A stretch of 64,000 nucleotides of DNA, taken from the sequence record PZ496580.1. One strand, written 5' to 3'. The notes under the pieces are model-generated. The model was not told where the DNA came from and ran no database searches. It saw only the letters and a list, made by a program, of their open reading frames with translations. This DNA is from a phage. Both the position numbers and the translations under genes were made by a program. Position 1 is the first letter of the stretch. Every line of letters starts with the position of its first letter. Of the stretch, positions 16,829-20,406 are shown piece after piece.

Positions 16829-17830
16829 TTAGTAATGGCTAAAACCTTCGGTTACATCTTCAACCACATAGTAACGATGACAGCGCATTTTGGCATTCGC
16901 ATAATCTTTCGGGATACTTACAACGTGACGCGGATCAACTTTACATTTAATGATTCGGCCTCGTCCACCGCCATAGTGCGGAATATAGTGTTTCGCTGCA
17001 ACGTGGAGGCCATTAGAGCAAGTACGGTCATCATCGGGGTCCACGTCTTTACGCTTCATTTTAACCGTGCGCCCTGGGCTATTATCAAACGTATGCGTAA
17101 AGAAATCTTTATAATCAACATCAACACGTTTCCATGCATAGAAACAACCATCTTCCCCGATCTCAATGTCGTTGTGCTCTAAGAAGTCAAACAGACGATC
17201 TACCGCCTTACGGCTAGGGTTTTTCTTGCACTTCTCAAAGAAGTTCAGATAGTGCGTATATGGCTTATTCTCTTTAATCGACTCCACAACTCGACGAGTC
17301 AGATTATTATCAAGAACAATATTATGATAATACACAATACCATTTTCGATACGGAAAGCGCCGTGATAATATACTTCAACCGCTTTCTTAATGTCAATCA
17401 GCGTAATTGCTTTAATGAAATCATTCTGCTTAACTGCCTCCAGTGCTTCATTAAAGTTAACATGCGACGGATCAGCAGTATAAACAATGTCACCACATGT
17501 AATAGTAATAAATTTAGATGAGGCTATTGCTACGATTTTTGAGGAAGTAGTCACGGGCTTTTTTGCGCGTTCACCGCCTTTTCCTTTACTGGTTTTACGT
17601 CGTGCTTTACGTTTTTCTAGTGCCTTGCGACCTTCCGCTACTGCGTCTTTCTGAATCAGTAATACACGGGAGGCAGTACGACGAGATACACCAAATGCTG
17701 CCGCAAGTGCTTCGCGGGTAGTAAACTTACCCTCACCCCACTGTTTAGCCAGTTTGATTTGTTTTGCAGAGTCCAGACATTGAACGTTACGGTCAGAGAC
17801 GGTGATTTTTGCTTTAGTCATAGTATTCAT
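16829..17830 (-). CDS. rIIB: rIIB protein (333 aa)
   Basis: C-terminal RLFDFLEHNDIEIGEDGCFYAWK...SIPKDYANAKMRCHRYYVVEDVTEGF matches remembered T4 rIIB; N-terminal HTH TTREALAAAFGVSRRTASRVL. Confidence 0.85.
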   Translation of the reverse strand: MNTMTKAKITVSDRNVQCLDSAKQIKLAKQWGEGKFTTREALAAAFGVSRRTASRVLLIQKDAVAEGRKALEKRKARRKTSKGKGGERAKKPVTTSSKIVAIASSKFITITCGDIVYTADPSHVNFNEALEAVKQNDFIKAITLIDIKKAVEVYYHGAFRIENGIVYYHNIVLDNNLTRRVVESIKENKPYTHYLNFFEKCKKNPSRKAVDRLFDFLEHNDIEIGEDGCFYAWKRVDVDYKDFFTHTFDNSPGRTVKMKRKDVDPDDDRTCSNGLHVAAKHYIPHYGGGRGRIIKCKVDPRHVVSIPKDYANAKMRCHRYYVVEDVTEGFSHY

Positions 17831-17870
17831 TCCTCTATTAGTGGGCGACTCTCGCCGCCCGATTCACATC

Positions 17871-17880
17871 ATTATACCAG
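17871..17880 (-). promoter_or_regulatory. Extended -10 promoter (TGgTATAAT) in front of rIIB, followed by a short stem-loop (17843-17860)
   Basis: Minus strand cTGgTATAATg directly after the stop of the small HTH ORF; GGCGA-CTC-TCGCC hairpin; then SD AGAGGAA. Confidence 0.4.
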
Positions 17881-17882
17881 AA

Positions 17883-18014
17883 TTATTTTGCTTCTACAAC
17901 CTTGCGGATTGTGCGGTCTGATACATTATAGATTCGTGCCAGTTCGCCTTTAGTCAAGCCGCGAGCGTATTGTTTACGGATGGTTTCTTTCTGGATAGCG
18001 GTCAGTTTAGTCAT
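17883..18014 (-). CDS. Small HTH protein (43 aa) resembling the N-terminal HTH of T4 rIIB
   Basis: Not in ORF track (<60 aa). ATG at 18014 preceded by GAGGTGA 11 nt after the rIIA stop. MTKLTAIQKETIRKQYARGLTKGELARIYNVSDRTIRKVVEAK aligns with remembered T4 rIIB N-terminus ...YTQQELADWQGVSVDTIRRVLKNAEEAK. Confidence 0.55.
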   Translation of the reverse strand: MTKLTAIQKETIRKQYARGLTKGELARIYNVSDRTIRKVVEAK

Positions 18015-18025
18015 AATATCACCTC

Positions 18026-20134
18026 TTAAAATTTAACATTCTTAACCAGTTTCATAAAGTCTTGTGCGCGTTTGTCGTTATGCAGAATACGATACCAGTT
18101 ATCTACAATATCATACAGTAACGGGCTATTCTCTTTAAACTTCGCACAAACTGCTTTAATTCGTTCGTTTGCTGCCGTGAATTTTTCGTCACAGATCTTT
18201 TTAGTTTCTTCGTCCATAATCCAACGAGTACGAAGGAGTAACTTGGAAACCTCTTTATTATAATGACGACCGTACAGTCTGTCAACAAATTCTGGAATAC
18301 AGCGTTCTAATTCATCGTCATGATACAACATAGTGATCACACCCAGATATTCGCCATACCCCAGATGATTGGTCTTAACCTTCTTAGCCAGACCAGCCAG
18401 CTTACCGCGAACAAATTCTAGCGCACATTCCAATTGTTCGTCAACGAGATATTTTTGTGTCTCATTACGGGTAATAATATACTTTGTTACCCCGAAGTAG
18501 TCAAGCGCCGTGTGTAATGTATTTTCATTATAGATCGATTGACGGCTACGGCTTTCGAATGCATCACCCACGCGGAACATGTGCAAGCCTGATAACTCGC
18601 GAATCTCTGCCGCTTTCATGTGATGGCTGGTTTTATGCCAACTGTCACCAATCTTTTCCATAATATACACGTTAGGTAGCTTAGGAGTCGCTTCACGCTG
18701 TGTACGTTCGGTCTTCTCCGGTTTAACTGCTTTAGCACGCAGATCATCGGCCTCAGATACCTTAATCACGGTCATTTCAGATTCATCATAATACTGTTTG
18801 ATGTACTCGAAAGTCTCCATATGTTTTTCGTTGCGCTGACGGAACACCAGTACCTTTTTATTGATGCCGTATTCCTGGACCATGCCGTTAAGAGTCAGTG
18901 CACGCAGTTTCGGTTTATCGGTATCATCAATAAGACACGTAATATCTTCTTTATGCATCCATACAAAATGCGTAATGTTGTATTGACTGCTAACGAAAGC
19001 AGGGCGCAATTTACTGATTGTGTGTCGAGTACGATACAGAGTATACACTTGACCTTCTACGTCATTAGGCGAATCTTTACCAGCATTAACAAACTTATTA
19101 TAGATTTCTACCGGATCATCCCATTGTCCGATCTTACCCATCTTGCTAATAATATTGCGTTGAGTCGATGAATACTCGCTCATAAATTGCGCAAGTTTAC
19201 GCTCTGTTTTAATGTTGGCGATCTTCTCTTTGACCTTTTCCAACATCATTTCATTGATTTCTGCAATACGTTTTTCGATGTTCGCTTTAGTCTCAATTGA
19301 CAAGTGAACTTCTTCACGCGATGGCATCAGGTCCAGATCACCCAAATCAAAATTAATGTAAATGGTCTGGTGCTGACGGTTTACAGCTTCTAACCATGTT
19401 CCGCGAACGTATTCATACGGGATCGGATACTGGATCTTACCCATGATTGCATATACTACATAGGAATCGTTATCACGCCCATTACAAACATAATAATTAT
19501 CAAAGCTAGGGAAATAATTAATTTCGATTGCATTGATATTAGGTTTGTGTTCCCCAAAATGACGCAGTACAAATTGTGCTTCTCTATGCCATGTCTGAAT
19601 ATCTTTCTCTTTCACTGGAATAGTGATTTTCAGACCATTGTCTTCATAGGTCGGTTCGTCGAAAATCTGCACCATTTTCGGCATAGAGTTTTGCACAAAT
19701 GCCGTAAAGCCATAAGCGCGACCATTGTAATAGTTTACGATTGTAAAGGTGTCGGTATAGCTATAAGCAGACTTCGCACCCAAACCAAAAGATCCGATAT
19801 AATCATTAGTTTGGTCTTTTGTTGATTCAAAGTAAACCGTAAACAGTTGTTCTAATTCTTTCTTAGACGGAATACCAGTACCATAATCACGCACAGAAAA
19901 ATACGGTTCGATTGCAGTCGGTAAATGAATATCAAACGGACGATCTAAGGTTCCGGCTTCTTTGTGGGTGTCGGTAGCATTACATGAATACTCACGGACG
20001 CAAGCACGCTCACAATATTGATAAGTGTTCTTAGAAAGCACCATAAAAGCCTTGCTACTTGCTTTCAGAGAAAAATCAACCGCACCGCTCAAGTCACTGC
20101 CAAATACTTCTTCATTATCAATATGCATTTTCAT
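18026..20134 (-). CDS. rIIA: rIIA protein (702 aa), GHKL/HATPase-like N-domain
   Basis: RDYGTGIP and GSFGLGAKS ATPase motifs; size close to T4 rIIA (725 aa); directly upstream of rIIB. Confidence 0.9.
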   Translation of the reverse strand: MKMHIDNEEVFGSDLSGAVDFSLKASSKAFMVLSKNTYQYCERACVREYSCNATDTHKEAGTLDRPFDIHLPTAIEPYFSVRDYGTGIPSKKELEQLFTVYFESTKDQTNDYIGSFGLGAKSAYSYTDTFTIVNYYNGRAYGFTAFVQNSMPKMVQIFDEPTYEDNGLKITIPVKEKDIQTWHREAQFVLRHFGEHKPNINAIEINYFPSFDNYYVCNGRDNDSYVVYAIMGKIQYPIPYEYVRGTWLEAVNRQHQTIYINFDLGDLDLMPSREEVHLSIETKANIEKRIAEINEMMLEKVKEKIANIKTERKLAQFMSEYSSTQRNIISKMGKIGQWDDPVEIYNKFVNAGKDSPNDVEGQVYTLYRTRHTISKLRPAFVSSQYNITHFVWMHKEDITCLIDDTDKPKLRALTLNGMVQEYGINKKVLVFRQRNEKHMETFEYIKQYYDESEMTVIKVSEADDLRAKAVKPEKTERTQREATPKLPNVYIMEKIGDSWHKTSHHMKAAEIRELSGLHMFRVGDAFESRSRQSIYNENTLHTALDYFGVTKYIITRNETQKYLVDEQLECALEFVRGKLAGLAKKVKTNHLGYGEYLGVITMLYHDDELERCIPEFVDRLYGRHYNKEVSKLLLRTRWIMDEETKKICDEKFTAANERIKAVCAKFKENSPLLYDIVDNWYRILHNDKRAQDFMKLVKNVKF

Positions 20135-20148
20135 AATATAATCCTCAC

Positions 20149-20406
20149 TTAATTAAAATCTTCTTTTTCCATCTCTGCGTAGATTACATCCCACGCCCAT
20201 AAATCAATAAACGCATTATATGTTATGGTGCAATCGTTATCAATCACTTCTTTCGCATATTTCTTGATGTTTTCGTAGGAAACTTGCGGATTAATTTTGT
20301 TCTTCCGAAGGTGCGCATATTCATACCTCAAACATTTCATAAACAGGTCCATCGATTTCTTTTCTCGATGACACTTGGCGATCATAAAATCAAAACTTCG
20401 ACTCAT
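20149..20406 (-). CDS. Hypothetical protein (85 aa), rIIA.1 position
   Basis: ORF between rIIA and gene 39. Confidence 0.5.
   Translation of the reverse strand: MSRSFDFMIAKCHREKKSMDLFMKCLRYEYAHLRKNKINPQVSYENIKKYAKEVIDNDCTITYNAFIDLWAWDVIYAEMEKEDFN

Follow-up and report, generated by a model that had tools for sequence, protein, structure and literature searches.

Is the 43-codon open reading frame (ORF) that lies between rIIA and rIIB, two genes counted among the most famous in genetics, a gene in its own right, and how is it related to its neighbours? The question was raised by a 64,000-nucleotide (nt) stretch of phage DNA (sequence record PZ496580.1), the whole of which is called the window here. 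The phage is a Krischvirus, an RB49-like coliphage; the 1.7 kb round the ORF were 97–98% identical to at least 35 complete Krischvirus genomes, including RB49, phi1, GEC-3S, KFS-EC and the MIZ phages. All three reading frames are on the minus strand, in the order rIIA, short ORF, rIIB. A preliminary description of the window had placed a 43-amino-acid ORF at 17883–18014, and it was found there, 11 nt after the stop codon of rIIA. The conservation of the ORF (hereafter the mini-gene), the selection acting on it and its existing annotation (hypothetical protein, PHROG 15481) were overlooked in that description.

The mini-protein, MTKLTAIQKETIRKQYARGLTKGELARIYNVSDRTIRKVVEAK, can best be regarded as a free-standing paralogue of the N-terminal helix-turn-helix (HTH) domain of rIIB, and the mini-gene, rIIA and rIIB together as a three-cistron rII module typical of Krischvirus and several uncultured relatives. 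The probability of this reading was estimated to be about 0.7. The mini-gene was assigned to rIIB on three grounds taken jointly: the profile score of its product, its location at the start position of rIIB, and the multiplication of HTH modules at this locus.

Conservation of the mini-gene

The mini-gene was intact in all the records of the Krischvirus set (59 in total), with an identity of at least 99% in 54 of them (tblastn). It was not found in any other cultured phage when 50,697 phage genomes were searched with tblastn. PHROG 15481, in whose entries neither a function nor a domain or family is assigned, represents the same gene and matched the mini-protein over the full length (E = 3e-34; residues 1–43 on profile positions 1–43 of 43). 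In public records the product is listed as 'hypothetical protein' (YP_010097294.1 of KFS-EC and YP_009118959.1 of GEC-3S). The protein is 100% identical in these phages, and the gene differs from theirs by one nucleotide, a synonymous change in the third position. In a collection of 5.8 billion proteins, five cluster relatives were detected, each of 43 amino acids, with identities of 98, 86, 86, 77 and 69%.

Four divergent metagenomic relatives (L005, L006, L008 and L010) were found to hold a homologue of 43–46 amino acids between rIIA and rIIB, preceded in each by a Shine-Dalgarno (SD) sequence. The mini-gene, rIIA and rIIB were compared by the Nei-Gojobori method in identical phage pairs. 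The mini-gene was the most conserved of the three: its amino acid identity was 60–84%, whereas those of rIIA and rIIB were 32–45% and 42–63%, respectively. The corresponding nonsynonymous divergences (dN) were 0.11–0.32 for the mini-gene, 0.51–0.76 for rIIA and 0.31–0.62 for rIIB (at most 0.57 in full-length rIIB pairs). Synonymous sites were near saturation, the proportion of synonymous differences (pS) being 0.5–0.86. The motif of helix 3, NVSDRTIRK, was invariant among the mini-proteins. The comparisons indicate that the 43-codon ORF is a real gene under selection.

An Rfam scan of 17600–18300 detected no RNA family. A protein of 32 amino acids, P0159, possibly a fragment, was identical to the mini-protein in its first 13 residues (MTKLTAIQKETIR) and diverged after them (FHFSRGLTKCDVSRMYNFS); it may be a recombinant or a variant allele.

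HTH fold and relationship to the rIIB N-terminus

The AlphaFold2 (AF2) model of the mini-protein had a predicted local distance difference test (pLDDT) value of 86 and contained three helices, at residues 6–18, 22–28 and 33–41. The nearest structures found with Foldseek were DNA-binding HTHs of transposase, resolvase and LuxR type; the N-terminal HTH of IstA had a template modelling (TM) score of about 0.8 to the model. Against the PDB, Foldseek retrieved generic HTHs only, none of them at E < 1e-3, and a sequence search of the PDB with the mini-protein yielded nothing specific. In Pfam, the mini-protein matched CENP-B_N (PF04218, a psq-type HTH) at E = 7e-6 with 26.0 bits against a gathering cutoff of 21.2, and Sigma70_r4 at 2e-4. 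The CENP-B_N match means a generic three-helix HTH only, and a profile of rIIB N-termini scored far higher. Many generic HTH families were present among the PHROG and Pfam matches.

The latter profile (rIIB-N) covers residues 1–55 of 104 non-redundant ordinary rIIBs, none of which came from the mini-bearing clade. Its positions 3–44 matched residues 1–42 of the mini-protein with 48.6 bits (E = 2.4e-14, about 1,030 targets). The mini-proteins of the relatives scored 41–54 bits. The profile was also run on every stop-to-stop segment of the window, and no segment besides the mini-gene and rIIB gave a score. The similarity to the N-terminal HTH of T4 rIIB, on which the preliminary description had relied, was reproduced by BLASTP with residues 7–45 of the T4 protein (16/39 = 41%, E = 5e-4). 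Alignment with the rIIBs of related phages, which had been proposed there as a check, gave a closer match with residues 3–42 of JD18 rIIB (21/40 = 53%, E = 1e-8). In the collection of phage genomes, the top non-self tblastn matches were rIIB N-termini of Jiaodavirus, Slopekvirus, Karamvirus and Serratia phages.

The mini-protein shares the three-helix HTH and the sequence family with the N-terminal domain of T4-type RIIB (PHROG 609, upstream of PF26926, Phage_T4_rIIB). The position of the mini-gene is also the same, as 11 nt separate the rIIA stop from the rIIB ATG in T4. In JD18, rIIA and rIIB abut directly. In contrast to the T4-type domain, the mini-protein is a separate polypeptide of 43 amino acids that is not joined to the C-domain PF26926, it is devoid of the usual xVKCL lead-in, and it coexists with a second, diverged HTH attached to rIIB. 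In the literature searched for rIIB and HTHs, no paper on a separate HTH gene was found. The description provides a family and domain assignment for a 'hypothetical protein' that all sequenced Krischviruses encode, among them several candidates for phage therapy.

The HTH of the neighbouring rIIB and the copy number of the module

The statement of the preliminary description that rIIB keeps an HTH of its own held true. In the AF2 model of rIIB, the helices of this HTH (residues 18–29, 36–42 and 47–56) had pLDDT values of 92–98; C-terminal to them the model has a long helix, then a basic linker that is disordered, and finally the C-domain. A Foldseek search with the rIIB model matched nothing meaningful to the C-domain and so gave no hint of a function. 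The HTH of the window rIIB reached only 23 bits with the rIIB-N profile, and the near-invariant Ile of helix 3 is replaced in it (RTASRV).

The number of HTH modules varied between phages. The rIIB of L005 (4685–6064, ENA ERZ27260015) is 459 amino acids long and has three tandem N-terminal HTHs of 52, 43 and 39 bits, besides the separate mini-gene. P0186, a 775-amino-acid rIIB homologue, contains two N-terminal HTHs, an insert of about 450 amino acids and a typical rIIB C-domain. The copy numbers recorded at the 5' end of rIIB were 1, 1+1 (split), 2 and 1+3, which documents the plasticity of the module at this site.

In the mini-bearing clade, rIIB is extended at the N-terminus by a short stretch with the conserved motif (V/E)SDR(N/Q)V, located in the window at 17785–17800 (residues 8–12) and observed also in P0007, P0008 and P0083. 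The motif resembles VSDRTI of the recognition helix of the mini-protein. The likeness may be due to chance or be a remnant of an old duplication junction.

The rIIB of the window has two in-frame ATGs three codons apart, at 17830 and 17821. The SD sequence AGAGGA (17836–17831) abuts the first ATG and is located 9 nt before the second, and rIIB is annotated as a protein of 330 amino acids (coding sequence of 993 nt) in KFS-EC and GEC-3S. Because of the SD spacing and the RefSeq annotation, the second ATG is almost certainly the true start. The double-start arrangement ATGAATAxTATG is also kept in L008.

Origin of the split

The preliminary description had interpreted the HTH module as duplicated and split off by a promoter cassette. 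The duplication stood in so far as an rIIB-type HTH was found beside an rIIB that has an HTH. The mini-protein is not a detectable copy of the neighbouring HTH, as BLASTP gave no similarity between the two (E = 26); the identity in a profile-guided alignment was 30%. Several results weigh against the proposed kinship. The mini-protein and the HTH of the neighbouring rIIB were each closer to the rIIB HTHs of other phages than to one another. As the two are not closest relatives, a recent local duplication is excluded and a simple local duplication is uncertain. No rIIB with two fused HTHs was found in which the first of them groups with the mini-proteins. In addition, the neighbour-joining tree of the rIIB C-domain brought Krischvirus, L008, P0008 and L005 together, but L010 formed a long basal branch and was not clearly placed among the other mini-bearing phages; a single origin is likely. 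Since the mini-protein is closer to rIIB N-termini of other genera, either the duplication is old or the module was captured.

The role of the promoter cassette as the splitting agent was contradicted by L010 (3861–4001; Logan SRR29026054, a contig of 152.8 kb). In L010, the mini-gene encodes 46 amino acids, overlaps rIIA in ATGA and meets rIIB in TGATG, and there is no promoter or hairpin between rIIA, the mini-gene and rIIB. Because the split exists in L010 without the cassette, the cassette was not its cause. Overlaps like those of L010 are what the splitting of a two-HTH rIIB by a small mutation in the inter-domain linker would leave behind. The overlapping variant of the L010 type was found in no cultured phage of the collection. 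L011, with an rIIB of similar divergence, had no mini-gene.

The most likely origin is a duplication of the HTH module at the 5' end of rIIB, after which the gene with two HTHs was split in the linker between the domains. Alternatively, the 5' end of a foreign rIIB may have been captured by recombination. The duplication and fission, or the capture, would predate the divergence of the mini-bearing phages. After the split, the free copy probably stayed canonical and the copy within rIIB diverged. The cassette at the junction of the mini-gene and rIIB in Krischvirus, L005, L006 and L008, and missing in L010, is a secondary addition.

Two other rIIBs were considered as cases of splitting and rejected. 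P0052 is a 233-amino-acid rIIB without an HTH; on its 1.5-kb contig the gene starts 70 nt before the contig ends, so that it was uninformative as an independent split. P0044 has a different N-terminus and no mini-gene.

Alternative explanations

A generic HTH captured from a homing endonuclease or another mobile element, which now serves as an independent small regulator and does not descend from rIIB, would explain a part of the results. When 1.84 billion representative proteins were searched with the mini profile (hmmsearch), 304 matches were obtained with multi-repeat HTH proteins on top. Per domain, the best matches were HTHs at either terminus of HNH, GIY-YIG and LAGLIDADG endonucleases, and small stand-alone HTH proteins, with 40–47 bits, whereas the rIIB N-termini had 38 bits at most. 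The HTH of one HNH endonuclease was about 52% identical to the mini-protein when aligned by eye, and the stand-alone mini-like proteins P0253 and P0197 are located in unrelated, non-rII contexts. The many generic families among the PHROG and Pfam matches point in the same direction, and in T4-type phages it is common for homing endonuclease genes to be inserted between conserved genes. The HTH class of the mini-protein is broad, common to rIIB and mobile-element proteins, and sequence alone cannot prove the descent of the mini-gene from rIIB. Nevertheless, such a capture was considered unlikely. The HTHs of homing endonucleases (HNH, GIY-YIG), resolvase/Hin and IS21 transposases have the same fold and comparable similarity, but the mini-protein has no catalytic domain, is fixed in the rII operon and is vertically conserved with rIIA and rIIB. 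No trace of a nuclease domain was found in the ORF, which lies 11 nt from rIIA and 61 nt from rIIB and starts directly with the HTH, at the distance from rIIA at which T4 rIIB begins. With the rIIB-N profile, seven of the eight mini-proteins (44–54 bits) outscored all endonuclease matches, which had been pre-selected for likeness to the mini-proteins, except P0214 (50 bits). The mini-protein of L010 (41.2 bits) was exceeded also by four further matches of 41.6–44.2 bits, one of which, P0186, is an rIIB. The top matches in the phage genome collection were rIIB N-termini, and HTH modules multiply at the rII locus itself, as in L005 and P0186.

It is very unlikely that the mini-gene is a non-functional relic, i.e. 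what remained of the 5' end of an earlier rIIB or of another gene, truncated when another rIIB and the cassette recombined in, with the ORF kept by chance only or through the overlap with regulatory DNA. The location exactly at the rIIB start position and the closer similarity to the rIIB N-termini of other genera than to that of the neighbour would be consistent with a relic. The same applies to the last six codons, which carry the -35 element of the rIIB promoter, and to the cassettes of the promoter-early stem-loop (PeSL) type, which are documented recombination sites in RB49/phi1 (PMC2839356). However, the mini-gene was the most conserved of the three genes at a divergence where rIIA retained 32–45% identity and synonymous sites were near saturation, and its length, start codon and SD are preserved in five lineages. 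Moreover, L010 retains the gene without the cassette, so the regulatory overlap cannot explain the conservation. The remaining explanation, an error of sequencing or assembly by which a frameshift or a false stop divides one longer rIIB, is favoured by nothing but the adjacency of two HTH-coding segments and has a negligible probability. The identical stop and 43 codons are present in 59 independently sequenced phages, none of which has a frameshift joining the mini-gene to rIIB, and the gene recurs in metagenomic assemblies. The 61-nt gap between the mini-gene and rIIB contains a promoter, a hairpin and an SD. The mini-gene was out of frame with rIIB in five of five lineages, the start-to-start offsets being 193, 190, 202, 197 and 140 nt. 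As the offsets differ between the lineages, a sequencing frameshift or a programmed fusion was excluded; together with the 59 concordant genomes, this led to the rejection of the joined gene. Both a joining frameshift and a lack of HTH similarity had been named in the preliminary description as results that would speak against the split; the former was not found and the similarity was detected.

Promoter and stem-loop between the mini-gene and rIIB

The extended -10 promoter and the stem-loop reported in the preliminary description do separate the mini-gene from rIIB. The promoter consists of the -35 element TTGTAG (17899–17894), a 17-nt spacer and the extended -10 element TGgTATAAT (17879–17871). 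The -10 element is perfect and the -35 element matches the consensus in three of six positions, due to which the promoter was skipped by the consensus scan. The -35 element sits within the last six codons of the mini-gene, and the stop codon of the mini-gene is in the promoter spacer. An identical promoter, with both the -35 and -10 elements, is annotated in the GEC-3S record, and the -35/-10 block is identical in L005.

The hairpin GGGCGGC-GAGA-GUCGCCC (17860–17843), located just downstream of the -10 element, had a folding energy of -15.7 kcal/mol and a z value of -2.84; six of its seven pairs are GC. No U-tract is present 3' of the hairpin. L005, L006 and L008 have hairpins of unrelated sequence at the equivalent site, and that of L006 overlaps the -10 element. 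In the whole window, 23 pairs of a sigma-70-like promoter and a GC-rich hairpin were found on the transcribed strand and one on the other. Examples on the minus strand are located at 20243–20177, 20679–20645, 12211–12183 and 54872–54839.

The PeSL cassettes of RB49/phi1 consist of a sigma-70-like promoter and a GC-rich stem-loop between the stop of a gene and the next SD, and are divided into five subclasses that include stem-loops 'downstream of the -10' and 'overlapping the -10' (PMC2839356). PeSL promoters are reported to be strong and the stem-loops to attenuate transcription (Arbiol et al. 2010, PMC2839356; Comeau et al. 2014, PMC4122927). The rIIA/rIIB junction is not mentioned in these two papers. 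The cassette between the mini-gene and rIIB fits the PeSL definition, in the 'downstream of the -10' subclass, and that of L006 belongs to the 'overlapping the -10' subclass. The 23 promoter and hairpin pairs of the window are likewise consistent with PeSL cassettes. The likeness comprises the sigma-70-type promoter, the stable GC-rich stem-loop and the placement between a stop and the next SD and start. In contrast to PeSLs, the -35 element of the window is weak (3/6) and lies inside a coding sequence, not behind an AT-rich UP region, and the small flanking gene is conserved across lineages and is no variable ORFan.

Proposed expression and function

The mini-gene has a strong SD of its own, through which it is probably translated from the rIIA transcript, possibly by ribosomes that re-initiate after rIIA. 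As to the translational coupling to rIIA claimed in the preliminary description, the 11-nt spacing and the SD GAGGTGAT were found, and a close coupling itself is plausible. The expression would be early, from a candidate promoter at 20243–20215 upstream of rIIA and perhaps from one inside rIIA (18285–18257). The latter is a consensus promoter about 240 nt upstream of the mini-gene and could drive the mini-gene and rIIB without rIIA. The cassette would give rIIB an early promoter of its own and probably attenuates the read-through.

The mini-protein is strongly basic, with a computed net charge of +6.5, and could bind nucleic acid through the invariant helix 3. It may supply in trans what the N-domain does in cis in other rIIBs. 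A role as modulator or partner of RIIA/RIIB would be more likely than that of a general transcription factor. No conserved candidate operator for the recognition helix was found: the window, L005, L008 and L010 had no word of 12 nt or longer in common at their rII loci, and 10–11-mers were shared at chance level only. One hypothesis in the literature is that RIIB resembles a transcription factor and forms a pair with RIIA, an ATPase of the GHKL type (PMC7824862). RIIB is required against RexAB, and a bacterial gasdermin system senses it (bioRxiv 10.1101/2023.05.28.542683).

In sequence terms, the start of the T4 B cistron is the HTH domain. This is the region used in the classical frameshift and r1589 experiments, r1589 being an rIIA-rIIB fusion, and it tolerates both frameshift windows and the fusion. 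Such tolerance would fit an N-domain that is separable from the function of the C-domain. The mini-bearing clade demonstrates that the domain can also be a protein by itself, one that is under strong selection and better conserved than rIIA and rIIB, which argues for a function of its own.

A bolder interpretation, that the rII system has three components and the free HTH is an obligatory partner or antagonist of RIIB, is doubtful at present. In such a system the canonical N-domain, which binds DNA or a partner, could be delivered in trans and the diverged HTH of RIIB could have a new role, or the free HTH could be a decoy that masks RIIB from the sensing systems of the host. If true, this natural 'split rIIB' would be a direct genetic handle on the N-terminal segment of rIIB. 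As a stand-alone paralogue of the rIIB HTH, the 43-codon gene is a simple system in which the function of the rIIB N-domain can be tested, as it is amenable to deletion, tagging and complementation.

Features of the rII locus

The positions of the features are presented in Table 1.

Table 1. Features of the rII locus in the window, listed in the direction of transcription.
Feature	Position	Strand	Evidence
rIIA, 702 amino acids, upstream cistron	18026..20134	-	PHROG 612, E = 2.5e-188; RIIA annotation in Krischvirus records
Candidate perfect consensus sigma-70 promoter, TTGACA-17-TATAAT, within the 3' part of rIIA	18257..18285	-	consensus scan, 12/12
rIIA/mini-gene spacer, 11 nt, with Shine-Dalgarno GAGGTGAT at 18025–18018	18015..18025	-	sequence
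Mini-gene, 43 amino acids, 5.0 kDa, isoelectric point 10.4, tri-helical HTH protein	17883..18014	-	ORF, PHROG 15481, rIIB-N profile, AF2
Sigma-70-type promoter of rIIB	17871..17899	-	sequence, motif scan, GEC-3S annotation, block kept in L005
GC-rich hairpin, 7-bp stem, GAGA loop	17843..17860	-	RNA fold
rIIB, 330 amino acids from the second ATG; ORF opens at 17830	16829..17821	-	PHROG 609, E = 1.9e-106; AF2 pLDDT 87.5
Diverged N-terminal HTH of rIIB, residues 18–56	17654..17770	-	AF2 helices, rIIB-N profile

The stop codon of rIIA, TAA at 18028–18026, is followed by the spacer with the SD and then by the ATG of the mini-gene. Two ORFs of the plus strand, 17759–17953 and 17802–17921, overlap the site; these are mechanical listings, and the protein conservation was measured in the minus-strand frame. 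The window rIIA matched GHKL ATPase families weakly (HATPase_c_3, E = 0.003, residues 77–140), which agrees with the literature, where RIIA is regarded as an ATPase of the GHKL type.

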